From NCBI GenBank assembly GCA_963802945.1, contig CAWDKY010000030.1:192001-256000 (forward strand): a DNA stretch of 64,000 nt, written 5' to 3'. This document shows positions 1 through 22,053 of the stretch, in pieces (position 1 is the stretch's first letter; each line of letters opens with the position of its first letter). This stretch comes from an uncultured delta proteobacterium. Lineage in GTDB: Bacteria; Desulfobacterota; RBG-13-43-22. The notes under the pieces were generated by a model, which was given only the letters and a program-made list of their open reading frames with translations, was not told the origin of the DNA and did not search any database. A program made the position numbers and the translations under genes.

Positions 1-407
1 ACCACCATAGCATCAATTTCCGTTGGGGTTTGTGTGCCGATAGAAGGTGCTGTGTAGGTAACGATTAAGATTCCTCCCACGGTATAACCGCTAAAGGTAG
101 TATTTGTTGTTCCATTAAAAGTAAAAGTACCGCCCAACGAAGCAGTCAGGATGATAGCGGCATCGGTTCTTCTTCCGGAAGCATCGGTTAAAATCACCGT
201 GATGGTCGTGGTTCCGTTGGAGATCATAGTGTTATTTCCAGCCGTCACCGAAACATTGGCCACCGCGCCGCCGGAACTTCCAGAACCGCTGGTGGTTCCG
301 CTGCCGACGCTATTTTGTTTATTGACATCCGAGACATTGCACCCCAGGGAAATTACCAGGGCGGCTCCCAGTAAAAAAACCACAGCAATTGAGAAAAAAA
401 TTTTCAT
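1..407 (-). CDS. Putative lipoprotein, Ser/Thr/Gly-rich, Ig-like (runs off the window edge)
   Basis: Not in the ORF track. Read manually from ATG 407 with GGAGG RBS: MKIFFSIAVVFLLGAALVISLGCNVSDVNKQ...VANVSVTAGNNTMISNGTTTITVILTDASG. Signal peptide with SLGC lipobox; directly downstream of gspG. Confidence 0.75.
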   Translation of the reverse strand, partial: MKIFFSIAVVFLLGAALVISLGCNVSDVNKQNSVGSGTTSGSGSSGGAVANVSVTAGNNTMISNGTTTITVILTDASGRRTDAAIILTASLGGTFTFNGTTNTTFSGYTVGGILIVTYTAPSIGTQTPTEIDAMV

Positions 408-417
408 GAAATGCCTC

Positions 418-846
418 CTATTCCCAATTGGTGACATCTTTGTCTTCGCCTTCTCCCCCGGGTTTGTTGTCGCGACCCAAGGAGTAAAGATCATATTCCC
501 CATGCGTACCGGGACATTGATAATTGTAAGGGTTTCCCCAGGGGTCCGAAGGAAGATTTTTCTTGAGATAAGGACCATCCCAGTTGTCATGTCCCGGGTT
601 GGCCATCAAGGCATTTAATCCCTCCTCTGTTGAAGGATAAGAGCCTACATCCAATCGATATTGATCCAGGGCTTGACCCAAAAGCTCAATTTGGGCTTTG
701 GCTGCCGCTTGCCTCCCCTTGCCCAACTTTGGGAAAAGCTTGGGGGCCACCAGGGCCGCCAGAAGGCCGATGATGACCATGACCACCATAAGCTCAATCA
801 AGGTAAAGCCGCGATGGTCTGACTGGGACCTCTTGGGGATAACCAT
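418..846 (-). CDS. gspG: T2SS major pseudopilin GspG
   Basis: RGFTLIELMVVMVIIGLLAALVAP prepilin motif; ALDQYRLDVGSYPSTEEGL, WDGPYLKK..P.DPWGNPY, SLGRD..PGGEGED. Confidence 0.97.
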   Translation of the reverse strand: MVIPKRSQSDHRGFTLIELMVVMVIIGLLAALVAPKLFPKLGKGRQAAAKAQIELLGQALDQYRLDVGSYPSTEEGLNALMANPGHDNWDGPYLKKNLPSDPWGNPYNYQCPGTHGEYDLYSLGRDNKPGGEGEDKDVTNWE

Positions 847-1102
847 ATCTTTTCCTTCCCTTTTCCCTGAATCCACTGCCCAATTTTTTTAAATTAAAAT
901 ACAAAACAGATGGTTAGTCAACAAAAAAATAAAATCCGCTTTAAAATAGATCAACGCTGAAACCACCACCCCTGTCTGTATACGGTCACGAACGTGTAAG
1001 AAAAGGGAGGGCAAGAAAAATTTAAGAATCTAAGTTTAACCTTCGAAATTGATCTGCAATTTTTTATTTGTATATTTTTAATTTTTAGTATAAAAAAACA
1101 AT

Positions 1103-3180
1103 ATGGCAGGTGGTTTGATGAAATTAAGGAGGTTTATTCTGTTGGTAAAAAGGGCATCCCGATTCAGTCAACTCGGTCTTATCTTGGTCATCGCTGCCCT
1201 GCCCTTCCTGGGGTCGCCGATATCGGCTCAAACGCCCCAGCCACCCCTGTCCCCAGGACCTCCCCAGAACCAACTCCCCGTGGTTCAACCGCCAACGCCT
1301 GTACCGACATCTGAGGCACCGGCACCTTCAATATCATCGATGCCGTCCCCGACTCCCGGCCAACAACCAGGGGCATCGGTAACCAATCCTCCTGGAAACA
1401 ACAGACCTGAACCGCCCAATACCCAACAACCTTCTGCAAAAAGAGGAGAGGTCAGTTTTAATTTTGATGACGCCGATGTCTATCTCCGTCATCCAGACCA
1501 TTTTTGGAGGTGTTCTGAAATTCAATTATATTATCGACCCTAAAGTAAAAGGGCGGGTGAATTTCAGATCCGTGGCCCCGGTAGCCAAAGAAGATGTCCT
1601 CCCATTGATGGAGGTTATTTTACGCCTAAACGGTATCGGCGTTGTGGAAGAAGGTGGGCTTTATCGCATTATCCCTATTGCCGATATGCCCAAAGAACCG
1701 GCCCCGGTTAAGATCGGACGGGAGCCGGGCAGGGTAACCTTGCAAGGTCTGGGATTACTTCAAGTCGTTCCTATAAAATATAGTACCTCTACGGAAATGG
1801 TCAAGGTTCTGACCCCCTTTCTGTCCACGAATGCGGTGATCGTGGATGTTCCGAAAATAAACTATCTCATTCTGGTGGATACGGATGCCAATGTAAAAAG
1901 ACTCCTGCAATTAGTCGAGATATTTGACAGCGAACAGCTTAAAAAAATAAAACCTCAAGTCTTTGTCTATCCGGTTCAAAATGCCAAGGCCAAGGACCTG
2001 GCCGGTTTGCTGCAACAGATATTCCTTGGGGGAAAAGCCCCGGCGAAAACCTCTACAACCAGACAACATCCACAACAACATCACATCCAACCATCGTCCA
2101 AGCCGGGACTGACCCAAATCACAACCGCAACCACACTTCCGGCCTCGCCTCAAATCCAGACCACCATTGTCCTTCGGTGCTTCAGCGGGCGGGGAGGCAC
2201 TGGTTTCTGAAATTACCAAGATTTTTCCAGACAAGATTACCAATTCACTGGTCATCTTGGCCACACCCGAGGACTATGCCCTTATCTTGGAAACCTTAAA
2301 TAAACTGGATCAGGTCCCGAGACAGGTGATGATCGAGGTGCTCATTGCCGAGATATCATTAACCGATGAATTAAAATTTGGGTTGGAGTGGTCTTTAAAC
2401 TCAATGATGGGTCAAGGTTTTGCTACTGTTACGGGAAATTTTATCCCGAGAACGACTACCAGTACCACTAACTCATCCGGTTCTACAACAACCACAACCA
2501 ATCCGCTATCGGGATTTTCTTTTTTGGGAATTGACAAAACCGGACTGGTCCAGGGATTCTTAAATACTTTGGCTACCCAAGGAAAAACCAAGGTCCTGGC
2601 CTCCCCCCATATCCTGGCCGCCGATAACCGGAAGGCCAAGATCCAGATCGGCAATCAGGTCCCCGTTGTCACCGCCGTACAAGGCACCTCAATAACCTCC
2701 CAAAACGTGGAATATAAAGATACCGGGGTGATTCTGGAGATAACACCGAACATCAATGACAGCGGGCTGGTGTCCCTGGAGATCAACCAGGAGGTTTCAG
2801 ATTATACTTTCCAACAAATCGGCACAGTCGACACCAACGTCTTTCCGGTATTTACCAAAAGACAGGCCTCCACCTTTACGGTGGCCCAGGACGGACAGAC
2901 CCTTGTCCTTGGCGGACTGATACAAGAAAATAAAGGTCAGACCAGATCCGGGTTACCCTTTCTAAGTCAGATCCCCATCCTCGGATATCTTTTTGGTTAT
3001 ACGGATAACACCTTCAACCGATCTGAAATCATCTTATTGCTTACCCCCAGGGTGGTCAGAAATCAAAAAGAGGCCGAGAATCTGACCGATTTTTACATAC
3101 ACCGTTTGGATAAGAGTTTTAAAAACCAGATTAATATGGAAGAATTACTCCCTCAAAAAGAAAAAAAGGAAACCAAGTGA
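1103..3180 (+). CDS. gspD: T2SS secretin GspD (split in three ORFs, frameshifts near 1480 and 2170)
   Basis: Signal peptide, Pro-rich linker, VSFNFDDADV, YIIDPKVKGRVN, LDQVPRQVMIEVLIAE, DTGVILEITP, PFLSQIPILGYLF secretin motifs. Confidence 0.93.
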
Positions 3181-6125: not shown

Positions 6126-7162
6126 ATGCAACTTAATATAAATAAGTCAGAGAAAGATATTTTTTCAAATCCTGTTGGTTTTGATTTTCTTAACCTGTTT
6201 TTCTCGTCGGCACCGGACGGTCTGAAACTTATAAGTTTATCCGAAGATGGGGTTCTATGGGCCTTGGGGGGAATGGAAAGTTTCAGATCCTGAAGGTATC
6301 GCCGTGGACAACCAGGAAACGTTTATGTGAATGATAATCATGCTAACGATTGCATCCAGAAGTTCACTTCCTTAGGAAGTTTTATCACCCAATGGGGTTC
6401 CTCGGGCAGTGGAAATAAACAATTTTCAGATCCTGAAGGAATCGCCATTGACGGATCAGGAAATATTTATGTGGCAGATTATATGAACTGTCGTATCCAG
6501 AAATTAGACCACAATGGTAACTATTTAACCCAATGGGGTTCTATGGGCAGCGGGAATCTGCAATTTTTATATCCCATAGGAATCGCCGTTGACTCATCAA
6601 ATTATGTCTATGTGACGGACTTCGGTAATAATCGTGTAGTGAAATATGACTCCAATGGTAACTATCAAACCCAATGGGGCACTTATGGCAGCGGGAATAA
6701 GCAATTTATACAACCTATTGGAATCGGCGTTGACCATTCAGGATATGTTTATGTGGCTGATAGTTATAATAACCGTATACAGAAATTTGACTCCAATGGG
6801 AACTATCAAACCCAATGGGGTTCCTCGGGCAGTGGAAATAAGCAATTTTCAGATCCTGAGTACCTTGCCGTTGACGCTTCCGGAAATGTTTATGTGGCTG
6901 ATTGGGAAACTATCGTATTCAGAAGTTTACTTCCGCCGGACCTAGGTCACCCGATTCGGCACTTATGGCAGCGGGAATGGACAATTTAAAGATATTGAGG
7001 GAATCGCCATTGACTCCTCATAGGATATGTTTATGTGGGAGATCGTGCTGATAATGGCGGCAGCTACAGCATACGAAGTGCAAACATCCAGATCAAAAGG
7101 GTATGCCCTGGCTGCATTTGATGCTGGGAAATAAAATTTTTATTCCCAGCCATTGTCTCTGA
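6126..7162 (+). CDS. Exported NHL-repeat beta-propeller protein (several frameshifts; may be a pseudogene)
   Basis: 47-aa/141-bp repeats QWGS.GSGN.QF..P.GIA.D.SG.VYVAD..N.RIQK; RBS AGGAGG before ATG 6126; 3' end reads KGMPWLHLMLGN after a 1-nt correction. Confidence 0.8.
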
Positions 7163-7479
7163 CATCATTTTGTTCGTGCTATCTTTTTTTAGGGCTTACG
7201 GGCACCTGCCAGAAGCAACCCAGGGACTTTTGTCACGTTTTGGTAACATTGCCCAGAAGGTAACTGAGAGATTTACAAAGCAGCAATAAATTAATGGCCA
7301 TATCCATACAACGTTTTACTAAATATGTCAGAGGAACCCTACTATATTCTGAGAGAAAGGAGAAATGGATTTTCACTTGGCGAAGGGGTTTGATTGAAAT
7401 TATCGAATGAGGCCAGAGTTTTTTTCGAGACAAATTATTTTAATATACTTAAAATAAAATGGACGAAAGGGGAATGCTA

Positions 7480-7992
7480 ATGAAAACAACTTTTAAAAAG
7501 AGGTTTTTATCGTGGTGTTAGTGGTCATGACGGCAAATAGTTTTCTTCCTTGAAATCGCAATTCCAGGCTGGTTTTCCGGCGATGTATAGTTGTCAGGTC
7601 ATCGTGGCCTAGTCAAGGAAAGTAAGTACGGGCCAATTGTCTGACCGATGGGGGTGGGGATTTACTGGTAAATGGATGCAAACGGGATCTGGCTATTCAA
7701 TGAACAATTAGCCTCGCCTTGACGGCCATCAGTACCGGCAAGTGGAAATGGCTAATTTGGATGATACATTGACTCCCCCGATCATCATCGAAGTATTCTT
7801 AGTAAATCCAAAGGGCCAAGAATTCCGATATATTTAATTCTTGGATTTTCAAAAGATATGGATACCGGCAGGGCCTGCCCATTTTGGATCGACGGGGACC
7901 TGGCTGAGAAGATATAAGTTTTTTTCTGCCCGCCAAATCAATCACCTGATTCCCTCCCCAAGGACTTAAGAGGGAAAATTAAAATGGGATAA
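7480..7992 (+). pseudogene. Degraded ORF with signal-peptide-like start, function unknown
   Basis: ATGAAAACAACTTTTAAAAAG followed by a hydrophobic stretch; coding-like composition but stops in all frames. Confidence 0.3.
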
Positions 7993-8491
7993 GGAGGATT
8001 ATAAGATACACCGAGATTCAATGACGAGTACTATACTCCTCAAACTCCGATGATAGGAAAAGACAAGATTTCAATCAGTAATGGTTAATTTCCGAAATGA
8101 TATTTTTAATAGTTATAGGTGAAATCAAACATCATCCTGACTGAAACAACTCGATCTTCCATTTTCAGCCCAACTATGACTCCTGTCTTATTTATTCCTT
8201 TGAAAATTCAGTCGGTATATTTTTCCTAATTAAATAATCTCCAAAAAAAAAGGGATATAATTATAAGGGAGGAGGAAAAAAAACAGTAACCTTAAAACGC
8301 AGGAAGAAGTATAAATTGTAAGGCAAAAATATAACCAAAACAATGACCCAGGCCAAGAACAAAGCGCAAACTCATATCAGGTGAATTTGTCTCAAAAGGT
8401 CTAAAAGATATACACGTCAACCTTCATAGACCCTTATGACAAGCATTAGATCGTTTTTATCAATTTTCCACAAAAGAAGGATCGATTTAGA

Positions 8492-9258
8492 ATGAGCAAA
8501 AAGCATACCTGGCTTTTGACAATCGTATTTTTAGGTTGGCTTTTAATGGATTTTCCTCAAGTTGTCCAAGCAGTGGGCTTTGAAGCGGCCTTTGGGGTCT
8601 GGTACGCCGAACCAGGGGGAGGGATAGGCTATGAAGGGGATTCCCTAGATCTGAAAAATGATTTGAATTACTCCTCGGAAGTAAAATTTTTTGGAAGGGC
8701 TAAAGTTGAATTGCCACGTTTACTCCCCAATATTTACTTAATGGCTACTCCTCTTAGCTACGATGGCACTGCTGCAAAAAATACTTCCTTCACCTTTGGT
8801 AATCAAACCTTTGTTGCTGGCACCTCTTTTACTTCCAACGTCAAACTGGACCACTATGATTTGGCACTCTACTATGGGGTCCCCTTTATTAAGTCGGCCA
8901 CCCAGGGGATGTTAAATGTAGATTTAGGATTCAACATGAGGGTTTTTGATGTCCAGGCCAAGGTTACTCAGGGGGGGCAATATGCAATCCGAGAGTTTTT
9001 ATATGCCGGTACCCATGATTTACCTCGGCATCCAGGTCAGGCCTGTTCAATCCCTTTCTCTGGAGGGAGAAATCCGCGGTATTGCCTATAATGGCAATCA
9101 GTTTTATAACCTCATCGGAAGAATAAAATATAACTTCTTTAGCTTTGCCTTTGTGAGTGCCGGATACCGCTATGAGGAAGTCGTTTTTGATACGCTTGAT
9201 ATCAAGCTTGATGTTCGATTGAGCCGGACCCTTGTTGGAATTAGGCCTTCAGTTCTAA
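8492..9258 (+). CDS. Outer-membrane beta-barrel protein, TIGR04219-like (frameshifts near 8975 and 9225)
   Basis: Signal peptide, LPNIYLMATP, DLALYY, VPMIYLG, AGYRY; corrected end GPLLELGLQF* with terminal Phe. Confidence 0.75.
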
Positions 9259-9630
9259 TGGTGGTTGAAAAGTCTTTTCCGCCTAACTATAATCTGCTTC
9301 GCTTACTACCTTACGAATACGGCCGAAAAGAAGAAAAGCCGTGCAGGACGGTGAATTAAATCGTTACGCAAGCATTCAATCCGTAACCATTGCCCTTCAG
9401 TCCAGTTCCCAAACAAGATTTGTAGGTGTAAGCCGCGAAAAAAGTTTAAAACTGTCCGTCAACATAACTACTGGTCAGAACAAATATTCACCTCTTGAAT
9501 CTTTCCTTTATCGCCAGAGCGGATTGCTTACTTATCCGTTATCGGCTATGAACTTTTCTCGTCCATCGTCACCTGGCCGTGACCATTTTTAACGCCCATC
9601 AATCGCTGCTTTTCAAAAATTTGAGGGTCG

Positions 9631-10365
9631 TTATTCATCAGGCATGGGGGGTGGTATTCCCGGCCGGGCAGGTGGGGAAATCCCGTGCATCGGTCCGGGA
9701 GGCAGAGGCATACGGCCAGGCCCAGGTCTTTGCCCGGGAACGGGAACTGACCTTCCCAGTCCTTGTCGGCTGGGGAAAGACAGGGAAGAAGGAGCCGGTG
9801 TAGCGGAGCCCGGAGTGGATGGTCTGCGCACCGAGGTTGTTTCCCTGCTCCCCCGCTGAACCTGGTTCTTGCAAAAGAACCTGTGGCTATCTGATCTCCC
9901 CGGGTCATCACTATCTTGTCGGTCATGATCTCCTTCAACTTGAAACCGCTTAATGACTCTCCAAGTATTATGCGGTTTGCTTCTTTTCCCGCTCCAGGGG
10001 GTCGAGACCTAGGCCTTTTTGTCTTCCAAATAAGCCACTTTCAAATCGGGGCTTATTAAGGTTCCGAAGAGGACAAATTCAGGTTTGGGAAGGAGGTCCT
10101 CCGCTTTTTGTTCCAGGCGGGATAATGCGTTCCGGATGAAAAAGATTTTGGTCGGCAATAACCCTATATTCCTGGGGTGAGGGCGATTGGGTTTTCAAGG
10201 AATTGTTTGGGTTATTCTCAACCGGCTTCTTTTTAATCAGGGTAGGGACATAAACAACATCCGAATCCAGCCGGGGAAGAAGGAAACCAAAAAGAAAAAC
10301 AAAAAAAACGATGATCAGGATACAGTTCAATACATTAAAATTTTTTATACCCGAATCAGCTCCAT
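9631..10365 (-). CDS. GspC/GspN-like T2SS component with Pro-rich tail (frameshifted)
   Basis: N-terminal TM, IADQNLFHPER, FVLFGTLI...AYLED, GFKLKEI..DKIVM; last gene of the gsp operon. Confidence 0.65.
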
Positions 10366-10366
10366 T

Positions 10367-10980
10367 TTATTTGCCTCCATACAAGGCGGAGACATCCAGT
10401 TTCACCATGAGTTCTCTCGGCTCCCTAAAATTTCTGACCCGGCAATCCAGTTCTTTGATCACCAGGTAAGGAATCCGGGTCTCCACAAAAAAAACAATGT
10501 CCCTTAAAGCCCCTGTGTCGGGGGCCGTAAAATCAAAGCTCGCGCTGACGAATTTGAACCGACTTTTATCTTCGGATTTTTCTTTTTTGGCTTTGAACCT
10601 TTCCGGTTTTTGGCCTTTGGAGTTCTTTGGGGGGCCCGGAAGGCCCGGAGACGATTTCTTCCTCCTTCCCCATCCGTTCACTGGGGATCACTCCACCCCG
10701 GGTGGTGATAATGCCTTTGACCATTTCTTGAAGACCGGCGGAGGCCAGGGAGAAGGTCTCCCCTTCGATCAGTTTTGCTGTTTCGGCCTTTCTTTTTTCC
10801 TTAAGGTTATGAATTTTTTTTCCAGATCGGGCTTTTCGGCAATAATGGTCAGGTATTTTTCAAGCGTCTTGGATTTGCCGTTTGTTCCTCCCGGATCAAA
10901 GCCAATTCTTGGTGAATTCGCAGATAGCCAAATTGATAAAGGACCAATCCAATCAGGAGGACCAGGATAGGAAGCCATGA
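10367..10980 (-). CDS. gspM: T2SS GspM/PilO-like protein (frameshifted)
   Basis: Position after gspL; TM then coiled region; C-terminus PYLVIKELDCRVRNFREPRELMVKLDVSALY. Confidence 0.7.
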
Positions 10981-12489
10981 TCAATAGCTGTTTTTTTTCA
11001 TCAGATCAAACCCTAAGCCTTCCATTTTTATCTGAAACCGGTCCATATTCTGCCTCGGGTCTCGGAAAGTCGGGGCCGAAAACTCCACCTTCTGAAAAAG
11101 GGTCGATGCCTCCAGCCTGGAATCAGTACGGTGGCCAAAGGAGAATAGCCTTCTAAATTGATCTGGGATTCGGAAATTCTGACCCTTGTCAGCCATGAAT
11201 TCTTAGGCAGCACCAGGGTGAATTCCTTCAATATATCCGAACTCAGAGGTTTTGATTGTTTAAAGTCGTTAATAAGGTGAATTTCATTATAAACCGTTTC
11301 AATCTCTTTTTTAAGGCTCTCGATTTTTTTTATTTCCACCTTTTTTGAGGCAACCTGGTTTTCGATATTTTGAAGTTTTTTCTTTTCCACTTCAATCGGG
11401 GTCATCCAATAAATCCCCAACAAAATCCCCAAGGCCAAAATCAGAAAGGGTAATTACCCAGGGGGGCTTTGACTTTTTGTGAAGCCCCTTAAGGAGTAAA
11501 TTGATTCCCAGCGACTTGGTCCATAAAGATTCCAGCATCCCACCGACAGCGGGATAAGGAATTGGCTTCCCCCTTTTCCCTTGATCCAAGGCCCATCTCC
11601 GCTTCATCTAAAAATTGAAAAGGTCGTTCTATGTGGATATGATCAATTTTTTCAGAGATGGATTTTTATCTTTCAGATCAAAAATGGCTTCCTCCAACGA
11701 ATTCATTTCCCTTGAGCCGATTTTAATAATTCAATTTCCTGACGGATCAGTCCTGCTTTTGTCTTTTCATCTCGTCCGGAAAAACACCGGAAAAGACCTT
11801 CAGGTCAAATCGGCGAAAAAAACACCCCCTCATATTGATTTTCATCGATTCCAACAAAAAGTACCTGATCTGTTTTTTGAATATACCGGCAAAGGGTGCT
11901 CAATCCCAACAGGTTGACCGTAATTTGATCGACCTTAAATCCTTTTTCCTGAATGGCTTTCAGATAAGGCTCTAACAAGTCGGCCCTGACCGCCGCCACC
12001 AGGATATTGACCTTTCCCGCTTCTTCTTTAAGGACCCTAAAGTCATAATAGGCATTTTCGGGAGTGAAGGGGGTTATCCGATCCAGTTCAAAGGCGATGA
12101 CATTGGAAATGTTTTCCAATACACTGGCGGGATATTCTACTGTTTTAATGACCGCCCAGGCCTTGGGAAGGCTCAAGGTCAAACGGCAGTCTTCCGCCCT
12201 CAGTTCGGCCCTGGCTAAACTGAGGCTGGAGGTCAAAAATTCCGGTGAAGGATATCTGCTTCGGGAAAAGGATATTCTTTCCACCTTTCATTTTTATCCT
12301 GGAAAGAAAGCGGGAACCGAAGGCAACAGATACTCTCCCTTTTTCAATGGCCAGGCAAAGGGTTTTTTTAAAGGAAATCCTGTCATCCGCCGGACTTAAA
12401 AACAATACCCGGCCCAGGCCTGCTCCCATTTTCTTCCCGACCGACCGGAGGAAACTGACTGTCCCGTTTTTATTTTGAAGCAATTTCAT
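10981..12489 (-). CDS. gspL: T2SS GspL (PilM/PilN-like) protein (several frameshifts)
   Basis: NISNVIAFELDRITPF...AYYDF actin-like part; LKEFTLVLPKNSWLT..I....INLEGYS PilN part. Confidence 0.8.
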
Positions 12490-13439
12490 CCCTGTTTCAA
12501 AGTGACTGGCGTCTTATAATAAAGTATTTGATATTGGCTTTGTCGTCAAGAGGTTAACTGTTGCCCTGACCGCATAGCCGGATTGCGGTTTATCTTTGAA
12601 TCCCGATGATTCAATCGTATAGATATTGCTCGATGCCGTAATTGGTATAAGTTGAATCAGATTTTGACCTATTATTCCCTCGATCTCCGGGATACTTTTA
12701 ATCTCCTGATTCTGACGATAGCTGATGATCTGATCGGCTTTTCCCGAATCTATTCCCGGAATGACGGCCATTAAGACTTCCTTAGAGGCGGAATTAATAT
12801 TGATGGCCCTGCGGTGTCAAAGACGGTCAGAAAATCGATTAAACCCTTTTTCCCCCGTCTCCATAAAGGAGTTCCCGGGTCACCCCTTTGACCAATAAGA
12901 GTTCCTCCAGGGTATCAAAATCGGCATTTTTGGCTTTATAGGGATTGGGCAGCGAAAGATAATAGTCGGATTTGGCCCCATTCAGACGGTGCAAATCACC
13001 CTTATCCTTCCAATCCATGATGGAGTCCGCAACGGTATCTATGTCTGTTCCTTCAATACCCATGATTTCGATAAGCTTCCTGAGGACTATTTCCGGGGCC
13101 GAATTAATATTTAATTTTCCTGATTCATCGGTTATCTTGAGGACATAGTTTCCATCCCCCAACTGACCGGAATAAGGGCGGCCGTCGACTTTCCAAATCT
13201 CCCCGCCTTCAACCAGGACCTTATTCAGAAATCTGCATCTTTCGTCGGTAAAAAAGCTCATAAACCCCTCGTTCCACCCCCGCTTCGGCCAGGAATCTTT
13301 TTCCCATCTCCTCCTTGAAGGATAAGGTGGAAAGGGTCTCGGTCCGGGCCATATAGGAAAATGAAAAAACAATGACCATCAGGACCGTCAAAACCCATAA
13401 AACGGTCAGCAAGGCAATACCTTTTTGATTCTGACTCAT
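12486..13439 (-). CDS. gspK: T2SS minor pseudopilin GspK (frameshifted)
   Basis: KGIALLTVLWVL, DESGKLNIN, DSIMDWKD, PYKAKNADFDTLEELLLVKG; ATGA overlap with gspL. Confidence 0.92.
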
Positions 13440-14231
13440 TTTTCCCCTGAAATAAATTTCCCGTTATCCGTTATTCGACCTTCAACCTTCGATTTCAAAT
13501 TCATTCTTTCTCACTGTTTCTTGATCAATCTTTCCTTGCCCGCATGCCTGGGCCCTGACGGCCTGGCTTCCCGCCAAGCCTCCTCCCGTTTTCATGGAAA
13601 GGATCAGGAAAGGTCCTTCCTGTCTTTGATCAGGTGAAGCCGAATCTTATTCGGCAGAAAACCGGTCTCGGTCCATTCATCAATCCATTTCCCTTCTTCT
13701 TCGGTCGGATCCTGATAATAATATTCAAAATACATCTCATCAAAAAATTCCAGGAGTTTAATCTCTTTTTTGTTTTCCCGCCCTACCCTGTTTTCCGAAG
13801 CCTAAAGCGTCCTTTTCCCCTGATCGTCTACAATCACCTGATAGGTGACCACCACATACCCTGTCTCCCCTCCCCAAATGGAAAAATTGGTAGAAAATTC
13901 GAGAGAGTCAGGCTGTCCTTTAAAATAATATTTTTTCTCTCCGTCTTCATCGTAGATCAGAGGGATTTCCGATTGTATTTGGGCGTCAATCATATTTAAA
14001 GAGGCCTTGACCCGCCCCAGAGATTCTATCTTTTTTTCCCCGGCTTCGACTGAACGAAACCCCAGTCTCAACACGGCCATCAGGATGAAAACCATAATCC
14101 CGACAATGGCGATGGAAATCATGAGTTCCAGCAGGGTGAAGCCAAGGTTATTCCTCTTACCTCTTTTTTCAGTTATGACATGAATTCACTGAATCCCTGA
14201 ATCCTCGACTCCTGGAATCCTCTGGTTTCAT
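13436..14231 (-). CDS. gspJ: T2SS minor pseudopilin GspJ (frameshifted, ends approximate)
   Basis: GFTLLELMISIAIVGIM; FKGQPDSLEFST; start ATG overlaps the gspI stop (TGATG). Confidence 0.8.
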
Positions 14232-14656
14232 CATACCGGTTTTTCAACCATCTTCAAGGTCTTCAGGGTCAAAGATTTTTCCTTGTTCCCCTGGGTCCAG
14301 TAAACCTTGACTTCCACCTCCATCAGTTTCACCGGGAGGTTTTCCGTCCTCTCCGTCAAGGTATCCGAAACAGAAACCTGAAATCGATATCCGTTATCCG
14401 TAATCCCATTCCAGGTCCTTTCGGAAAATTCCTTGCCTTCCAGAACTTCTCTCATCTTGGACTGGGCCTCCAAAGAACCGGCCACATATTCTTCCGAAGC
14501 TGAAATGGATCTCAGGTTGGCTGAAAAAAGCTGTAAAACCGCGGTGACGGCCATTCCCAGCAGGGCCAGGGCAACCAAAACCTCCAGCAGGGTAAAACCG
14601 GCCGTTTTATTCAGGGGCTTCATTTCAGCCTTCTTTCGATATTCATTGTTCGCCAT
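14231..14656 (-). CDS. gspI: T2SS minor pseudopilin GspI (alternative start 14623)
   Basis: AGFTLLEVLVALALLG; EVEVKVYW...L.LKTL. Confidence 0.88.
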   Translation of the reverse strand: MANNEYRKKAEMKPLNKTAGFTLLEVLVALALLGMAVTAVLQLFSANLRSISASEEYVAGSLEAQSKMREVLEGKEFSERTWNGITDNGYRFQVSVSDTLTERTENLPVKLMEVEVKVYWTQGNKEKSLTLKTLKMVEKPV

Positions 14657-14672
14657 TCGATGTTCCCTATTC

Positions 14673-14804
14673 GATGACTTCGTAAAAAGACGTCATTCCC
14701 GCGCACGCGGGAATCCAGGCCCTGCGTAACCAATTAAAAACACTGGATTCCCGTTTTCACGGGAATGACGAAAATGGGTTTCGTCGACTTTTTGCGGGTT
14801 CATC
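14673..14804. mobile_element. MITE-like repeat with an internal REP-like pair
   Basis: Ends GATGACTTCGTAAAAAGAC / GACTTTTTGCGGGTTCATC; core GTCATTCCCGCGCACGCGGGAATCCAG...CTGGATTCCCGTTTTCACGGGAATGAC. Confidence 0.75.
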
Positions 14805-14843
14805 CACGGGTTCATCCATTGGTTCTGTTTGTCTGAATAGGCT

Positions 14844-15331
14844 TCACCGGGTAACCACTGCCCCCAGTAAAGGATCCAGCTCGATTCCTATAGCCTTTTT
14901 TTTATCGGACAATTGAAATTGGGCGCTGTCCATACCCCAATTCGATTCAAAAACCAGCCGATATTGCCCGCTCCGAATCTCTTCCCCTGTTGAATCTACT
15001 ATTTTGAGTTCCAAATGGGAAGGGATTTTCTTGACCTGTCGCCCTTCTATTCCATATTCTTTAGAGTCCAGATTAACGGACCATCCCTGTTGTTCCCCAT
15101 GAATTTTGGCCAAATCACGGGCCTGTCTCAGTGTGGCCGAAAATTCCCTGACCGTTGCCTGGAGCTTGGCCGAAGACAGAAGGTTGGCAAAAGAGACCGT
15201 CACCAATCCCAGGATCAGCAGGCTTAACAACAAGACAATGATCAATTCCAGCAGGGTAAATCCCGATCGTTTTTAAAATATTCGAAGGGTTCGAGCGATT
15301 CGAGGATTCGAGGATTCGAGTTTGTTAACAA
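14844..15331 (-). CDS. gspH: T2SS minor pseudopilin GspH/FimT-like (1-nt indel in the A-run near 15272)
   Basis: RSGFTLLELIIVLLL; LRQARDLA; probable TTG start 15331 with GGAG RBS. Confidence 0.82.
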
Positions 15332-15401
15332 ATTAAACTCCAGATCGAATTTAATTTTTTCACTTAATCCTTGACCCCTTGAATCCTTAATCCTTATTTT
15401 T

Positions 15402-16596
15402 TTAAAAAGGAAGATCCGTGATACTGAAAATAGCCATCAGCATGGACAAAACAATAAAGCCGATGATCAGCCCCATCACTAAGATCATCGCCGGTTCCAG
15501 AAAGCTGATAAACCTTTTAATGGAGACCCGCAAACTTTTTTCATAAGTGGCCGCCACCTTCAACAACATATCATCCAATTGACCGGTCTCCTCCCCCACC
15601 TTGATCATGGATAAGGCCAGCGGAGGAAACACCTTGGAAGCGGAAAGCGGCAGGGCCATGCCCTTGCCTTCTTTCACCCCGGTTGACACTTCCTCCAGGG
15701 CGGAAGCAATCGCCTGATTACTGACTACGTCCCGTGAATTTTTTATGGCCTGCAGCAATGGGACCCCGCTCTTGATCAGGGTGCCCAGGGTCCGGCAAAA
15801 ACGGGCGGTCTCCAACTTTCGGATGATATCTCCCAACCAATTTAAGTTTTATACCGTCCCAGCGAAACCGACCCTGTTCCGATTTGGTGTAGGTCCTGAA
15901 GAGAATCCAGCCGAAAACAATCAGGATCAGGGCTATCCACCAGTAGGTTTTCAAGCCCTGGCTGAAGGAAAGCAGAAGTTGAGTCGAAAGAGGCAGGGAA
16001 CTTCCCATTTCAGCAAAGATGACGGAAAATTTAGGCAGAACATAGGTCAGCAGGATAATGATCGACAGTCCCCCGGTGGAAAGCAAAATAATCGGGTAAA
16101 TCATGGAGGACAAAACTTGTTCTTTCAGTTCCTGGGCCGATTCCAGAAATTCAGTCAGCTTCTCCAAGACAACGGACAATACCCCGCCCGCCTCCCCGGC
16201 CTTGACCATATTGACATAAAGTCTCGGAAATACTCTGGGGTGCCGCTGAAGGGCATCCGAAAAAGAACTTCCTCCCCGGATCGTCTGGAGTATAGACCGG
16301 ATCAGGTCCTGATTCTCTTTGCTTTCGGCAATACCGGCCAGGATATTCAGACTCCGATCCAAAGGCAGTCCGGCCTCTAAAAGGGAGGTCAGCTCGGAAG
16401 TAAAACCCAGGAGATCGGCTTTAGGGGAAAACAGGGCAAAGCGTTTCTGGAGGCCTTTTCCGGGAACGAAGACCTTTAAAGGAATGATATCGGAATTTTT
16501 AAGACGATCAATGGCGGCTTGTTCATCAGCGGCTTCAATAGCCCCCTCGATAATAGCCCCCTCAGGGTTGGTCCCTCGGTAAGAAAAGACGGCCAT
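15402..16596 (-). CDS. gspF: T2SS inner-membrane platform GspF (frameshift near 15840)
   Basis: LLEAGLPL, HPRVFPRLYVNMVKAGEAGG, MIYP, ARFCRTLGTL..SGVPL, VGEETGQL, LEPAMI. Confidence 0.96.
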
Positions 16597-18119
16597 TAGA
16601 CCTCTTGAGTGACCCGGAGCACTTCCGGTAAAGTGGTCAAAGAGGCCTTCACTTTTTCAAGCCCGTCTTCCAACAGGGTCTTCATGCCGTTTCTTCTGGC
16701 CTCCTCCCTTATTTGAATGGCATCGGAATTTTTCAGGATCATTCTCCGTATGGAATCTTCGATCAGAAACAATTCAAAGATACCGATTCGGCCAAAAAAA
16801 CCGGTCCCGGAGCACTGCTCACACCCGGTTCCTTTATACAGGGTGTCGATCTTGCCCATCTGGAGGTGAATCAGCTCCTCCTGAACCGCCGGGGCCGGAT
16901 CAACAACCTTGCAGGCCGGACAGATGACCCGGACCAGGCGCTGGGCCAAGATACCGCGGATGGTCGATGAAAGCAGAAAGCTCTCCACACCCATGTCCAG
17001 CAAACGGGTAATGGCACTGGGGGCGTCATTGGTGTGCAGGGTGGAAAAGACCAGATGTCCGGTCAAGGCCGATTGAATGGCGATCTCGGCCGTCTCCAGG
17101 TCTCGGATCTCTCCGATCATAATGATATCGGGATCATGGCGGACGATATGCCGCAGGGTGCCGGCAAAATTCAATCCTATCTGAGGTTTCACCTGGATTT
17201 GGTTGATCCCTTTCAACTGGTATTCGATGGGGTCTTCCACGGTGATGATCTTTTTGTCCGGGGAATTGATCTTATCCAACGCCCCGTACAGGGTGGTGGT
17301 CTTCCCGCTTCCGGTCGGTCCGGTGACTAAAATAATCCCGTTGGCTTTTTTGATCAGTTGGTTAAAGATGGATAGGTTTTGAGCGGAAAACCCCAACAGA
17401 TCGAGATCGATGGTCACCCCTTCCTTTTGCAGTATCCTCATCACCACCCCTTCTCCATGAAGCACCGGGATGGTGGACACTCTTAAATCGACCTCTTTTT
17501 CACCCACTTTTAATTTGATCCGGCCGTCCTGGGGCAGCCTTTTCTCGGCGATATTCAGTTTGGCCATAATCTTAATCCGAGAGAGAATGGCGGCCTGAAG
17601 ATTCTTGGGCAGGGATTCTATTTCGTGCAACACCCCGTCAATACGATAGCGTACCTTCAATTCATCTTCGAAAGGCTCGATATGAATATCACTGGAACGA
17701 CTTTCTACGGCCCGGGTGATTACCATGTTGACCAATTTGATGATCGGGGCTTCCGAAGCCAGATCCTTGAGATGCCCGATATCCTCTTCCTCTTCTTTCA
17801 GGAATTCCAGGTTGTCGGTCCCGATGTCTTCGATGATCCGGTTGATGTTTTGAGCTTCCTGACCGTAAAACTTGGCAATATATTCGCTAATCAGGTCCGG
17901 GTCTCCTGCATAAACCATCACCTCAGCCGAAAGGGCTACCTGCAGGGCATCAATGGTCGCCTTGTCCTCAGGGCGGCCAAGGGCCACTTTCAAAACATTA
18001 TTCTTGAATTCCAAGGGGACGACCAGATTTTCTCGGATGAAACGGGTGGAAATACCCTCTAACGCCAGGGGGATCTTGGGAAGTTGTTCGGGATTTAAAG
18101 AATGAATTTCAAAACCCAT
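16596..18119 (-). CDS. gspE: T2SS ATPase GspE
   Basis: SDIHIEP, RLPQDGR, GPTGSGKTTTLY, TVEDPIEY, DPDIIMIGEIRD, TGHLVFSTLHTN, CPAC..GCEQC. Confidence 0.97.
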   Translation of the reverse strand: MGFEIHSLNPEQLPKIPLALEGISTRFIRENLVVPLEFKNNVLKVALGRPEDKATIDALQVALSAEVMVYAGDPDLISEYIAKFYGQEAQNINRIIEDIGTDNLEFLKEEEEDIGHLKDLASEAPIIKLVNMVITRAVESRSSDIHIEPFEDELKVRYRIDGVLHEIESLPKNLQAAILSRIKIMAKLNIAEKRLPQDGRIKLKVGEKEVDLRVSTIPVLHGEGVVMRILQKEGVTIDLDLLGFSAQNLSIFNQLIKKANGIILVTGPTGSGKTTTLYGALDKINSPDKKIITVEDPIEYQLKGINQIQVKPQIGLNFAGTLRHIVRHDPDIIMIGEIRDLETAEIAIQSALTGHLVFSTLHTNDAPSAITRLLDMGVESFLLSSTIRGILAQRLVRVICPACKVVDPAPAVQEELIHLQMGKIDTLYKGTGCEQCSGTGFFGRIGIFELFLIEDSIRRMILKNSDAIQIREEARRNGMKTLLEDGLEKVKASLTTLPEVLRVTQEV

Positions 18120-18153
18120 AGTCTTATTCCTGGTTTTTTTATAACAATTAGGG

Positions 18154-18576
18154 TTACAAAAGAATCGTTTCTATGGCTAAACCTTCTGCTGATTTCGATA
18201 GACCTTTATCGGCCGTGACGAAAATATATTCTCGAGAGGAAGCAACAGCCAAATGAATCGCATCGAGACTTCTTAATGAATTATTAAACAAGCTGATCCA
18301 TTCTCTGGCCAAACGGAAATGATGGGGTTCGATAGGCAGATTCAGATAAAGACGGCCATCTATGTGAGCCAGAAATTTGGCAATAATTCGTCCACCATCC
18401 CTTTGGCTAAGTCCCCGTTCTCTTATTTTCCTTGATATGGCCGAGCAAAACTCAACTTCTGTCAGTGCACTAATGGCAGGTCGAAAATGATTCAAGATAA
18501 AATCCTCTGCTTTTTCGCTTAAGGGCTCCGGGCAGTAGTAGGCTGCAAGAATGCTTGTGTCCAGGTAAAAATTCAA
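18154..18576 (-). CDS. vapC: PIN-domain toxin VapC
   Basis: YLDTSIL, TEVE, LRSLDAIHLAVA, FVTAD. Confidence 0.92.
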   Translation of the reverse strand: MNFYLDTSILAAYYCPEPLSEKAEDFILNHFRPAISALTEVEFCSAISRKIRERGLSQRDGGRIIAKFLAHIDGRLYLNLPIEPHHFRLAREWISLFNNSLRSLDAIHLAVASSREYIFVTADKGLSKSAEGLAIETILL

Positions 18577-18806
18577 TAGCGTTCCTCTGCTCTTTGGCGT
18601 AACACCATAGCCCTTAAAGGTTCCCCTTTGATCCGGATTGAAGATCGGAATTTTTTTAAGCTGGGCAGCTTTATCCCTTCGGTCAGAGATGGAATCAAAC
18701 GGGCCACTTTTTCCCCCCGGCGGAGAATAACGATCTCATCCCCTTTTTCCACCCTATCCAGAAGGGAACTCAATTTGCTTCTGGCTTCTTTGATATTTAT
18801 TTCCAT
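18573..18806 (-). CDS. Phd/YefM-family antitoxin
   Basis: INIKEARSKLSSLLDRVEKGDEIVILRRGEKVARLIP; 4-nt overlap with the toxin. Confidence 0.92.
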   Translation of the reverse strand: MEINIKEARSKLSSLLDRVEKGDEIVILRRGEKVARLIPSLTEGIKLPSLKKFRSSIRIKGEPLRAMVLRQRAEERY

Positions 18807-18934
18807 TTTCTTATCCCTTAATCCTTATCGTTGGGGTAAAGTGTACACTAATCTACAATAAGTGTCCATTACCTAATTTTACCTTTATTTATCTTAACCC
18901 CCTTTATAAATTGCAAAACGGCCCCTTTGTTGAA

Positions 18935-18954
18935 ATGCACAGAAATTTGTGCAT
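18935..18954. promoter_or_regulatory. Palindromic activator site (possible bEBP UAS)
   Basis: ATGCACA-GAAATT-TGTGCAT about 90 bp upstream of a -24/-12 motif. Confidence 0.5.
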
Positions 18955-19039
18955 CTATAACCAAAATAACTGCGCCAATGGACATTCGGCACCAACCCAG
19001 AAAAAACATAACCAAAAGAAAATTTTAAATAAATTCATA

Positions 19040-19055
19040 TGGCATGTTTTCTGCT
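19040..19055 (+). promoter_or_regulatory. Sigma54-type -24/-12 promoter
   Basis: TGGCATGTTTTCTGCT (GG-N10-GC) pointing toward the S53 protease gene. Confidence 0.6.
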
Positions 19056-19369
19056 TAATAAAAATTAATTTTAGAAAATTCAGAAAAATGTTTTCAGGTC
19101 AGGCAAACAGGATCAATAAAAAGGAGAAAACAAAAGTTGATGAATTTTTTATTGACATAACCTATTAAATATTTTAAATAAGATACATAATCAGCACATC
19201 AAATAATGTCACATTTATCGGACAGAATATAAAATCATCCACCAATAGCAATCAAATATATGGTGTGGCCCGATCCCATTCAAACCCCACTCAAAACAAC
19301 ACTCCAATTCATGCATTGCTTCCCTGTAACGCTACAGAGGACGGTGATTGCTTATTAAGGAGATCAAAC

Positions 19370-21764
19370 ATGAAGATTGCATCCCTTCGCCTTTCCAACC
19401 CAATAGGCGTGTTTTTACTTGCTCTTATCATCCTCCTGGGTCTGGTGGCAACGCCATGTTTATCGGGTCCCGTTCCTTCCATGGTAAGGCTGTCCGGTCA
19501 TATCCCGGCAAAGGCTATAGCCAAGGCCAGGTTGATAGAGAGGCTGGATTCCAAAACTGAAATTTCCATTGTTTTTTCTTTGCCGCTGCGCAACCAGCCA
19601 GAGTTAGACGGATTGCTGAAACGCATCTACGATCCTACTGATCCGCTTTATGGCCACTATCTAACCTCCCAGGAGTTTACCGACAGATTTGGACCTACAC
19701 AGAGCGATTATGATTCAGTCGCTGGCTATGCTGCCGGCCTGGGACTTAAGATAACCGGAACTCATCCAAACCGTATCCTTCTGGACGCATCGGGCACAGC
19801 AGCCGTGATTGAATCTGCCTTTGATTTGCATCTTAATAATTATCAAGGGCCGGATAACCGAATATTTTATGCCCCTGACAATGACCCTCAAGTTCCCGGT
19901 TCCATTGCTTCCCTTATTGTCGGCCTGATTGGTCTGGACAATGCAGCCGTCCGGCATACCCATAGCCGCCGTGTTTCTGCCGAGGGATTTTCACCAAGAT
20001 CGCCTCAGCCGAAAGGAACAGGCACCGGTATTAATTTGAGACCCAGCGACATCCTAAAAGCTTACAACCTCACCGGCGTATCGGCCAATGGGTCCGGCCA
20101 AACGCTTGGCTTATTCGAACTCGCCTCGTACACCTCCTCTGATGTGAGCGCTTATGCGAGTTATTTTGGTTTGCCAACGATAACGCTGCAAAACGTCCTG
20201 GTTGACGGAGGTCCCACCTGTGGTCCTCCCCCCAACTGTCTATGCGGCCAATGTGGTGAGGACGAAGTGACACTTGACATTGAGCTTCAGATGGCGCTGG
20301 CCCAGGGTGCGAGCAAGATCATGGTCTATGAAGGCCCGAACACGGATGCGGGGACGGTGGACACTTATAACAGAATGGCCACGGATAACCTGGCCAAACA
20401 GATGAGCACGAGCTGGGGGCTTGATGAAGGGGATAATTCCTCGACGTTTCTCAACAGCGAGAATACCATCTTCCAGCAAATGGCGGCACAAGGGCAATCC
20501 ATCTATGCGGCCTCGGGCGACTCGGGCGCCTATGACAATGGTATTACTCTCAGCGTCGATGATCCTGCCTCTCAGCCTTATATGGTTGGAGCGGGAGGGA
20601 CAACGATTTTTGTCAACTCGGACGGGTCATACAATCATGAAACAACCTGGAATGACTCTTACGGGGCCAGTGGCGGAGGTGTCAGGCTGGGTATGGCCAA
20701 TTCCCTCTTGGCAGCAGGGAACTGGAACCGCGGCCTCAGCCACCATGCGGAACGTGCCGGATGTTTCGCTCAACGCTTCCGTCGCAGATAGTCCCTATTA
20801 TGTTTATTATGAAGGCGCCTGGTGGCTTTATGGCGGCACGAGCTGTGCTGCTCCCCTCTGGGCGGCTTTCACCGCGCGCGTCAATCAATTACGCGCTGCT
20901 AATGGGAAGGCAACGTTGGGATTTGCTAATCCTTTGATTTACCAGATTGGGAAAGGCGCAAATTATCAAACGGATTTTCATGACATCGCCGACGGAAGCA
21001 ACAACCTGTATTATGTGGCCAAAACGGGTTATGACAATGCTACCGGATGGGGTTCTTTCAATGGAGCCAATCTGTTGGCCGATCTGGCGTTGTCAACTTC
21101 AGCGCCAAGCGTTACCACAGGCTCGGCTACCAATATAACCGGGGTGACTGCCACCCTGAACGGGACGGTCAATCCCAACGGGTCATCGACAAGTTTTTAT
21201 TTCGAGTGGGGGACATCCACTTCTTATGGGAATACCACCAGCAGCCAGTCAGCCGGCAGCGGCACAAGTGATGTTGCTGCTTCGGCAAATTTAACCGGGC
21301 TCCTTACTGATACTACCTACCACTACCTTCTCGTGGCCACTAACAGTGCCGGGACCAGTTACGGGTCGGATATGACCTTCACGACTTCAACCGGTCCACC
21401 AATCGTTCCGACAGTCACGACCAATGCGGCCAGCGGGCTGACGGCCTCGGGGGCGACCTTGAACGGGACGGTGAATGCCCATAACGCCAGCACGACGGTG
21501 ACCTTTCAATACGGGTTGGACACGAACTATGGCACCACGGTGACGGCGGACCAGAGCCCGGTAACCGGCACCAGTGATACGGCGGTGAGCAAGGCCATAA
21601 GCGGGTTGACTCCCCCAAACACGACCTATCACTATCGAGTAGTCGGTGTGAACTCGGCCGGCACGACCTACGGTGGGGATATGACCTTCACGAATTCTAA
21701 CGCGGGTATGTTTTACTTCATCCCAAACCGGAAGGGCGGGGGAGCAGTCATTTATCTTGAATAG
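19370..21764 (+). CDS. Secreted S53 (sedolisin/kumamolisin) peptidase with pro-domain and two C-terminal FN3-like repeats (frameshift near 20685)
   Basis: AAGGAG RBS; signal peptide; pro-domain YGHYLTSQEF; EVTLD, SGDSG, RNVPDVS, GGTSCAAPLWA, GYDNATGWGS; repeats ATLNGTVN...YHY...NSAGT.YG.DMTFT; tail FYFIPNRKGGGAVIYLE. Confidence 0.92.
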
Positions 21765-21793
21765 GGCGAAATATGGCTTCCTTTAGACACAGA

Positions 21794-21922
21794 ATGGCCA
21801 GGCCAAGGCCAGCCGGGTCTCTGGTGGCCACCAACAGTCTGGGGACTCCCTATGGATCGGATATGTGCTTTATTGCCTCTGTCAAAGTTATGCCATGGTT
21901 GTTGTTGCTGCTGGAAGATTAA
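21794..21922 (+). pseudogene. Orphan FN3-repeat end plus alternative C-terminal tail
   Basis: LVATNSLGTPYGSDMCFIASVKVMPWLLLLLED*, homologous to LVATNSAGTSYGSDMTF at 21330-21380. Confidence 0.8.
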
Positions 21923-22053
21923 TTAAACCTTGGCCCGTCGGTCTCACAGGTTTCAGTCTCCTTTTGACCCGGCTCAAAATATCATGGCCGGTACCCGTTA
22001 TTAAGCCGGGGTGCTAAAAATGATAATATATTTTTAGTAATGGGAAATATCAA

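Follow-up and report, generated by a model that had tools for sequence, protein, structure and literature searches.

In AB5 toxins, the B pentamer encloses a helix-lined pore that receives a C-terminal helix of the A subunit; this pore is hydrophobic on its apical side and charged or polar on its basal side, and B rings have repeatedly taken on unrelated enzymes (passages of PMC11610972 and PMC13592729). The origin of some B subunits is called a mystery (a passage of PMC13592729). Heat-labile enterotoxin (LT) and cholera toxin (CT) are type II secretion system (T2SS) substrates, and LT binds lipopolysaccharide (LPS) via its B subunit (passages of PMC3153253); furthermore, the CT B pentamer can bind the vestibule of the secretin GspD (passages of PMC3169554). 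The choice of folded substrates by the T2SS is described as still not well defined, and in the related type IV pilus machinery the export signal of TcpF is read by the minor pilin TcpB (passages of PMC10120004). Here, a 64,000-nucleotide stretch of DNA (the window) from an uncultured delta proteobacterium (contig CAWDKY010000030.1, positions 192,001 to 256,000; contig C30 of genome G000) is analyzed with regard to a short C-terminal peptide on unrelated exported proteins (the tag) and a small secreted protein with an oligonucleotide/oligosaccharide-binding (OB) fold that is encoded beside tag genes (the partner). Tag and partner are very likely linked in function, and the evidence leans slightly toward an AB5-like plug-and-ring arrangement, in which a portable, A2-like tag helix would load diverse cargo onto a B-like ring.

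A short C-terminal tag on diverse exported proteins

The consensus of the tag is K-A-M-P-W-L-x-L-L-L-x-[DE], and two copies occur in the window. The G000 assembly is rich in frameshifts (contamination 6.72%), and its T2SS region is present as three near-copies (C30, C57, and C8; 86–91% identical), owing to either strain mixture or recent duplication. The features of the window that concern the tag and the partner are the following.

6126..7135, plus strand: NHL beta-propeller protein with a signal peptide (PF01436), a tag-bearing cargo, frameshifted in the assembly
7097..7135, plus strand: tag copy 1, which reads K-G-M-P-W-L-x-L-L-L-G-K-stop in the C57 copy and has probable read errors in the window copy
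about 7474..7810, plus strand: small secreted OB-fold ("B-like") partner, frameshifted, the proposed tag reader (from tblastn, reading frames, and family fold)
21818..21922, plus strand: orphan remnant with the end of an FN3-like repeat and tag copy 2 (K-V-M-P-W-L-L-L-L-L-E-D-stop), identified by its match to P0251

Both peptides reported in the initial annotation were recovered, KGMPWLHLMLGN from position 7097 and KVMPWLLLLLED with its stop codon at 21884–21922, and they score E 2.5e-4 (copy 1) and 5.4e-6 (copy 2) with the hidden Markov model of the tails (A2). The frame of the NHL tail in the window continues for 11 more codons before a stop. In the C57 near-copy (94% identical over the NHL tail stretch), the tail reads QKFGKHPDQKGMPWLLLLLGK up to the stop, in frame with the NHL repeats, and the NHL protein terminates in frame as KGMPWLLLLLGK; a G005 relative (P0264) ends KAMPWLPLLLGN. 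Because the near-copy reads the tail in frame, the window reading "LHLMLGN" is most likely a read error, judging from this alignment, and the true NHL ending LLLLLGK before the stop; the out-of-frame NHL tail that would have spoken against the tag was thus not observed. The second peptide does sit behind the S53 protease as an orphan, as had been proposed, but it is not the end of the protease itself, which stops at 21764 with another tail (FYFIPNRKGGGAVIYLE). It lies on the remnant of approximately 35 codons (21818–21922), which comprises the end of an FN3-like repeat and the tail and matches an intact protein encoded elsewhere (P0251) with 88% identity over 26 residues. An S53 paralogue on contig C39 (P0001; 93–96% identical), away from the T2SS, ends in the tag GKAMPWLLLLLGK. 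The tag loci of G000 thus number three, two of them intact and one a relic.

The claim that the motif is concentrated at C-termini beyond chance was upheld, since all 14 matches in G000, G001, G005, and G007 lie 1–4 residues before a stop; when the DNA pattern was used without its stop codon, 18 matches were obtained in 41 relatives, and the 4 beyond the 14 same-genus ones were off-frame. Profile A2, made from 38 tails, separates true from chance matches sharply; of the 401 genomes sampled from the phylum (inferred to be Desulfobacterota), 10 carry the tag, and these belong to six families. Up to 8 copies are present per genome (8 in G005, 5 in G053, and 5 in G414), these counts being lower bounds, as the first pass scored at most 22 candidates per genome. 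A scan of the Genome Taxonomy Database (GTDB) gave at least 119 matches. Among the 27 listed matches from deltaproteobacteria or Desulfobacterota, 21 belong to a long or edge-cut frame whose stop is no more than 5 residues away (at least 4 of these repeat proteins already counted in the G genomes), 4 are internal in secreted proteins, and 2 are off-frame; among the remaining 92 listed, six or seven seem genuine, coming from Gammaproteobacteria, Kiritimatiellaeota, Anaerolineales, and others and in part from short contigs, and the rest are membrane helices or off-frame. When 1.84 billion representatives were searched, the motif was present in 30 of the 31 matches at E ≤0.001, several of which are training proteins of the profile; the motif lies no more than 3 residues from the end in 28 matches and is present twice in 6. 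Selection acts on the tag peptide, because synonymous codons vary freely in 57 distinct tails: Pro is encoded by all four of its codons, and Leu by five or six of its codons at each position.

The tail has a hydrophobic run of approximately 8 residues (alignments A1 and A2) without a transmembrane helix and mostly finishes with G/E/D/N followed by D/E/N/K, a finish of 1–4 residues without a basic cluster. No NCBIfam or Pfam model matched any of the 38 tails scanned, which supports the description in the initial annotation of a short, unmodeled C-terminal tag that lacks a transmembrane segment. Tandem and internal copies also occur (P0242, P0243, P0245–P0247, and P0250; L113, L126, and L157), and 119–325 more residues follow the internal ones.

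The cargo families include S8, S53, C1, and M10 peptidases, transglutaminase, NHL, leucine-rich repeat, beta-helix, Lcl_C, and FN3 proteins, whereas no ADP-ribosyltransferase, ribosome-inactivating protein, or known toxin domain was found among 20 cargoes scanned. Signal peptides are enriched among them, as had been predicted: a crude rule passes 28 of 43 complete tag open reading frames (ORFs) versus 464 of 2354 G000 ORFs, and 8 of the 15 tag ORFs that fail it show a signal peptide by eye. The position of the tag is shared with known sorting tails. In 120 homologues of the FN3-like repeat of the protease, the slot holds IPTL-like, type IX secretion (PF18962), AMPWLLLVPLDD/E, or FPWQILLPGLV tails, and in two proteins (L053 and L061) the tag directly follows choice-of-anchor Q; none of 119 other S53 homologues carries the tag. 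More short hydrophobic tails occupy the FN3-like-repeat slot in P0204, P0234, P0236, P0187, P0213, and P0223 (FPWWIFW, FPWQILLPGLV, and IILPLIFK), and these are possible sister tags. One such candidate, the FPW-x-x-x-x-P tail of P0187 and P0213, was rejected for lack of enrichment, its matches in 31 of 401 genomes (one in each, two in one genome) being read as mostly due to chance.

A small OB-fold protein encoded beside tag genes

The partner is an unannotated protein of approximately 105 residues with a signal peptide (approximately 80 residues when mature), and its gene directly follows the NHL gene. The initial annotation, which had named the T2SS subtype, a TIGR04219 barrel, and a lipoprotein linked to gspG as possible handlers of the tag, overlooked this gene, which tracks the tag far better than they do. 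In the window, the frameshifted partner was detected by tblastn with P0279 and P0288 at 7491–7742 (E 3e-5 and 9e-5, respectively); its C57 copy was matched at E 3e-16, and the partner adjoins both intact tag loci of G000. It is located 63, 72, 220, 709, and 756 nucleotides (nt) downstream of the tag gene at L150, L070, L067, L063, and L061, respectively, and 413 nt upstream at L001; relatives follow tag genes in G005, G007, G058 (twice), and L150, and weakly in L255. The gene at L001:4336–5256 (G000:C39, minus strand), immediately upstream of those for the partner and the tagged S53 paralogue, encodes a secreted 306-residue protein with an extraordinarily Tyr-rich C-terminal half.

Co-occurrence was assessed with two seed alignments of the partner, A4 (G000, G005, G007, and G058) and A5 (with G001, G053, and G402 added). 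In a set of 80 genomes (10 tag-positive and 70 tag-negative), 7 of the 10 tag genomes had the partner, against 2 of the 70 others (p = 1.3e-6), and across the 401 genomes the figures were 7 of 10 versus 14 of 391 (p = 4e-8), with 377 negative for both; the count of 7 is partly circular because the seeds came from tag-positive genomes. The partner was also found in G411, G414, G418, and G419, outside the 401-genome sample, and its homologues number 686. Several tags can accompany a single partner, namely five and one in G053 and likewise in G414, and cultured Desulfosarcina alkanivorans PL12 has five tags, one partner, and two GspD.

Two tests are free of this circularity, the first being a forward prediction for the 14 partner-positive genomes without the MPWL form. 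In 10 of them (G006, G105, G136, G224, G250, G277, G325, G347, G369, and G403), a gene with a variant tag (PWLPLLLGE, PWLKLLLDD, YPCLQLLLND, MPLLLLQD, and similar) lies within 0.9 kb upstream of the partner; seven of the ten belong to one family (f60), probably one inherited locus, and approximately four lineages are independent. For the second, 80 metagenome loci were picked by the partner alone and grouped into 55, of which 18 were dropped for having less than 400 nt upstream, and a neighbor with a Leu-triplet tail is present in 18 of the 37 usable groups. Leu-triplet ends were counted in 21 of 83 partner-neighbor ORFs, versus 66 of 5767 ORFs in G000 and 6 of 195 other ORFs at the same loci, with a rule that was framed after the metagenome loci had been viewed and with a few of the 21 resembling chance matches. 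Judged by these loci, the tag also takes the form of PILELLL-, SWLSLLLDD-, and AALYLLLE-type ends, which are tandem in some cases, and the tag-partner system may reach well beyond Desulfobacterota. Distant partner homologues with AALYLLLE, SWLSLLLDD, or tandem LSYL..LL tails were noted at L361, L369, L381, L386, L391–L395, L398, and L399.

The limits attached to these counts weigh against the proposed tag-partner system, and several distributions do so as well. No nearby tag gene is present in four partner genomes (G029, G295, G300, and G318); the partner was not found in three of the ten tag genomes (G158, G214, and G289, which are drafts with one tag each), nor in G410, G412, and G413 from outside the 401-genome sample; and most tag genes have no partner in the flanking DNA examined.

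No Pfam, NCBIfam, or PDB sequence match to the partner was obtained (0 for A5 against PDB). Its AlphaFold2 model (79 residues, pLDDT 97.8) is an OB fold of five strands and one helix (residues 42–55). Among the 35 Foldseek matches listed, 33 are AB5 toxin entries with TM values of 0.57–0.71 (LT-IIb B, which ranks first, PltC, Citrobacter CT-like B, pertussis, cholera, and ArtB) and 2 are eIF5A. The VIA Z-scores are 10.7 for SilF (also 9.8), 9.6 for CipA, 9.4 for LT-II B, 8.7 for pertussis chain F, 8.6 for the N-terminal part of pro-protein-glutaminase, and 8.0 for Stx2B. The partner resembles AB5 B subunits, with an OB fold and a helix, at the fold level only (8–17% identity), and the Atlas features PF02918 and PF02258 (scores 0.83–0.84) serve as leads only. 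The helix is the most conserved part of the partner, basic at the start and hydrophobic thereafter (conservation per 100 rows: K43 76, E44 88, L46 95, A47 99, L50 97, and A52 99), and by analogy this pattern fits the AB5 pore as described in passages of PMC11610972. A complex prediction with four partner copies (A5) and a 30-residue tail (A6) gave a score of 0.04 and a mark of 0.32 and, being made with fewer than five copies and outside the calibration of the tool, speaks neither for nor against binding.

A candidate mechanism of cargo loading

In the AB5-like mechanism proposed here, tagged cargo and partner would both cross the inner membrane by Sec, and the partner would form a ring in the periplasm, like the B pentamer of an AB5 toxin. 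Like the A2 peptide, the short amphipathic tail of the cargo would enter the pore lined by helices, with its Leu-rich part meeting the conserved M-L-A-x-A-L-T-A-M helix and its acidic end meeting the Lys/Arg with which that helix starts. Once loaded, the ring would probably leave by the housekeeping T2SS, and it may then keep its cargo, be it a protease, propeller, beta-helix, or FN3 protein, attached to LPS, matrix, or other surfaces; a single type of ring would serve several cargoes. The data establish the tag and its position, the diversity and the signal peptides of its cargoes, its exchange with known sorting tails, its linkage and co-occurrence with the partner, and the OB fold, whereas the ring, the pore binding, the T2SS route, and the surface binding are inferred. 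Direct binding of the tag by the partner is probable, whereas docking of the tag in the pore of a pentamer, suggested by analogy with the toxins, has chances only a little better than even, as does export of the loaded ring by the T2SS. Non-covalent docking is favored over cleavage because tag copies occur in tandem and internally, and a shared carrier fits because one partner occurs with five tags in G053 and G414.

Like AB5 toxins (LT-I/LT-II, cholera, Shiga, SubAB, EcxAB/CfxAB, and ArtAB/PltAB), the system has a small secreted subunit whose OB fold contains one helix, neighboring genes in the order cargo-then-partner with signal peptides on both products, and a short C-terminal cargo helix, which is a predicted one in the tag; the S8 and M10 peptidase cargoes recall the enzyme classes of SubA and EcxA. 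By contrast, the partner has no sequence similarity to any B family, the hosts are environmental anaerobes rather than pathogens, and the cargoes are many per genome, with several non-enzymatic ones (FN3-only, NHL, and beta-helix) and no host-targeting nicked A1/A2 enzyme. Moreover, the tag is a free element of 10–12 residues that moves between unrelated proteins, in tandem or internally, and the pentamer is here a presumed one. If the model holds, the system functions in the manner of AB5 assembly; by sequence and cargo it is not an AB5 toxin, nor is it a tripartite CTERM system.

Some of the structural and genomic data count against this mechanism. The Foldseek E-values are 0.005–0.035 and none reaches 0.001; the metallochaperone SilF and CipA outrank the toxins in VIA, small OB folds being generic; a sequence link to the AB5 families is lacking, as noted above; and the predicted helix of the tail is of low confidence (pLDDT 68.6). 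Regarding export, GspG is present in 20 of 21 partner genomes but also in 56 of 71 partner-negative ones of the 80-genome set (a background of approximately 79%), and a partner genome that is 91% complete (G403) has no GspG. Likewise, G410 (Anaerolineales) has one tag (L132:5991–7589) with no secretin and no partner match; this tag gene is probably a transferred orphan. In G411, tags, partners, and secretin-like genes are present without a GspG match.

A rather unlikely alternative, although the strongest one, is that the partner binds the tag as a monomeric or dimeric periplasmic chaperone, similar to SilF/CusF or to the pro-region of protein-glutaminase, which would shield the tail and pass the cargo on without a ring. 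The top VIA matches, SilF and the N-terminal part of pro-protein-glutaminase, agree with such a role, and all the linkage evidence fits it equally well, whereas the Foldseek matches listed are almost all AB5 toxin entries and the near-invariant small-residue face of the helix (A47, A49, and A52) would suggest tight, ring-like packing. SilF/CusF-type periplasmic OB-fold chaperones and Photorhabdus CipA have the highest Z-scores but share 10–14% identity with the partner, and they are not known to be linked to any peptide tag.

It is more doubtful that the tag acts by itself as a monotopic membrane anchor for pick-up by the T2SS and retention at the surface, the OB-fold gene encoding a co-secreted accessory protein or lectin in the same islands. 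A Trp- and Leu-containing helix in one leaflet, preceded by Lys and followed by an acidic end, would resemble a lipid anchor; many tag genes stand alone, six genomes have tags without a partner found (G158, G214, G289, G410, G412, and G413), and variant tails preserve hydrophobicity more than sequence. However, an anchor leaves unexplained why tag genes occur directly upstream at partner-selected loci approximately 20 times over background, as well as the near-disjoint distribution against the 377 double-negative genomes.

In many loci, a third gene lies directly upstream of the partner and encodes a secreted protein or lipoprotein of 180–310 residues with acidic E-V-I-P-P...G-x-T-x-x-E-L repeats, often after an STN/secretin-N0-like domain; PF07660 was matched in 4 of 9 such proteins scanned (E 2e-5 to 6e-3), all below the cut-off. 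No family model covers this family, which is present at the D. alkanivorans locus and was not found in G000. Its loci are L400:423–1355, L401:1954–2670, L383, L387, L402, L307, L061:8332–9021, and L306. The product may tether the putative ring or couple it to the secretin, a role that is a lead only because STN domains occur in TonB-dependent systems too.

The T2SS neighborhood and known sorting systems

The T2SS cluster of the window is complete, and the features around the tag genes are the following.

3..590, minus strand: putative lipoprotein linked to gspG, no family match
418..3180: gspG (418–876, minus strand; TIGR01710) and the secretin gene gspD (1103–3180, plus strand, frameshifted; TIGR02517)
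8492..9359, plus strand: TIGR04219 outer-membrane barrel in two frameshifted halves, a neighbor that the tag does not require
9546..18119, minus strand: remaining T2SS genes (gspE, F, H, I, J, K, and L-like, with accessory genes), the probable export route
19370..21764, plus strand: S53 (sedolisin-type) protease with two FN3-like repeats and one frameshift near 20685 (PF09286)
21711..21764, plus strand: second, different tail of the S53 protease, FYFIPNRKGGGAVIYLE before the stop

An aldehyde oxidoreductase-like gene, the NHL gene, and the barrel lie between the two T2SS blocks, and a PIN toxin-antitoxin pair, the S53 protease, and dtd lie behind the cluster (the oxidoreductase and PIN labels come from sequence reading). 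A fourth copy of the barrel (96%) is located on contig C29 of G000, away from the T2SS. The slot between the PIN pair and dtd (18154–22054) holds a different tag-bearing gene in G005:C4 (L233) and, as far as gene order indicates, is a cargo-swapping site next to the T2SS. The second tail of the S53 protease is hairpin-like and directly precedes the orphan MPWL remnant, which looks like tail replacement. A strict pattern for this second tail matched in G000 only (61 genomes) and Atlas gave no match; it may be another undescribed tag.

The reading of the initial annotation, in which a T2SS subtype, the barrel, or the gspG-linked lipoprotein would itself read the tag as a linear signal, is now improbable. 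A linear export signal has a precedent in the TcpF signal read by TcpB in a related machine, and TcpF and CofJ, with type IV pili, likewise have a short linear peptide, an oligomeric partner (a minor-pilin trimer), and passage across the outer membrane; unlike the tag, their signal is N-terminal, serves one substrate per system, is proteolysed after export, and is read by a pilus subunit (passages of PMC10120004). GspG is present in all 10 tag genomes but also in 55 of 70 tag-negative ones (p = 0.19) and is too common to discriminate. Tag genes adjoin the T2SS cluster in G000 and G005 and also in G250, which belongs to another family, whereas 46 of 47 tag loci have no T2SS-region gene in their flanking DNA, the exception being the barrel at the C57 copy of G000. 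The co-occurrence with GspG and the adjacency are thus compatible with dependence on the T2SS and not decisive; such dependence of the tag proteins is plausible. The proposed readers fared less well. The barrel occurs in 5 of 10 tag genomes versus 15 of 70 tag-negative ones (p = 0.11) and was not found in the four tag-richest genomes (G005, G053, G058, and G402), one of which is a single closed contig. The lipoprotein gene neighbors gspG in members of the genus with and without the tag, and at the T2SS loci of other families it was not observed. A special T2SS subtype is contradicted by tag-negative G008 and G012, which have the same cluster layout.

Tripartite sorting signals (GlyGly-CTERM/rhombosortase, IPTL-CTERM, PEP-CTERM, and MYXO-CTERM) resemble the tag in being C-terminal, numerous per genome, placed on unrelated signal-peptide proteins, and interchangeable in their slot. 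GlyGly-CTERM and MYXO-CTERM cargoes need the T2SS. By contrast, the tag has neither a transmembrane helix nor an Arg cluster, has an acidic end, and occurs in internal and tandem copies, and the gene linked to it encodes a soluble OB-fold protein rather than an intramembrane protease. Membership in the GlyGly-CTERM/rhombosortase system was considered and rejected (the barrel in half of the tag genomes and no model match on 38 tails). That the tag is nevertheless a truncated sortase-type CTERM, cleaved by a dedicated protease with addition of a lipid or cell-wall adduct, is very improbable. It shares six of the eight CTERM criteria of Haft, the transmembrane helix and the basic cluster being the two that are absent (parts of bioRxiv 2023.06.07.544157), and it follows choice-of-anchor Q in the two proteins mentioned above; however, internal copies are trailed by long stretches, and no recurring protease was found in the tag-gene neighborhoods. 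The first neighborhood clustering took only ORFs of at least 120 residues and so left out the partner. NF041763 (sort_motif_CFI) is likewise a short C-terminal motif without a transmembrane helix and with a putative sorting role, but the tag lacks Cys-Phe-Ile, and NF041763 had no match in five tag genomes or on 38 tails. Finally, a DNA-level repeat or assembly artefact that merely encodes the peptide, for which the frameshift-rich window and the common 3′ flanking bases of some within-genus tag genes might be cited, is refuted by the codon spread in the 57 tails and by tails in frame with long ORFs across families, and can be dismissed.

No paper on the tag or partner was found by title, abstract start, or motif string in open-access full text, a search that had subscription papers and bioRxiv supplements outside its scope, and the passages of PMC10553843 that were available contain no description of either. 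NCBIfam seed notes or the supplementary tables of Haft could mention the motif. Even if the ring model fails, an unmodeled tag with a linked, uncharacterized partner is new.

With regard to the AB5-like mechanism, it is conceivable, although somewhat doubtful, that the AB5 architecture is a general bacterial cargo-loading platform rather than a toxin invention. By way of a free plug of 10–12 residues, secreted enzymes and adhesins of any kind would be loaded onto a ring of five OB-fold subunits bearing a T2SS-recognition surface and surface-binding sites, the third gene might couple this ring to the secretin, and this environmental system would constitute a new sorting class and a candidate reservoir that gave rise to AB5 toxins. 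The tag-and-carrier pair provides a direct test of T2SS substrate choice and of B-subunit origin, and its parts are tractable: the peptide has 12 residues, the 80-residue protein folds with confidence, and a host, D. alkanivorans PL12, is in culture. The finding would supply two or three missing family models and would put names to the surface proteins of numerous sulfate reducers and syntrophs that are uncultured.

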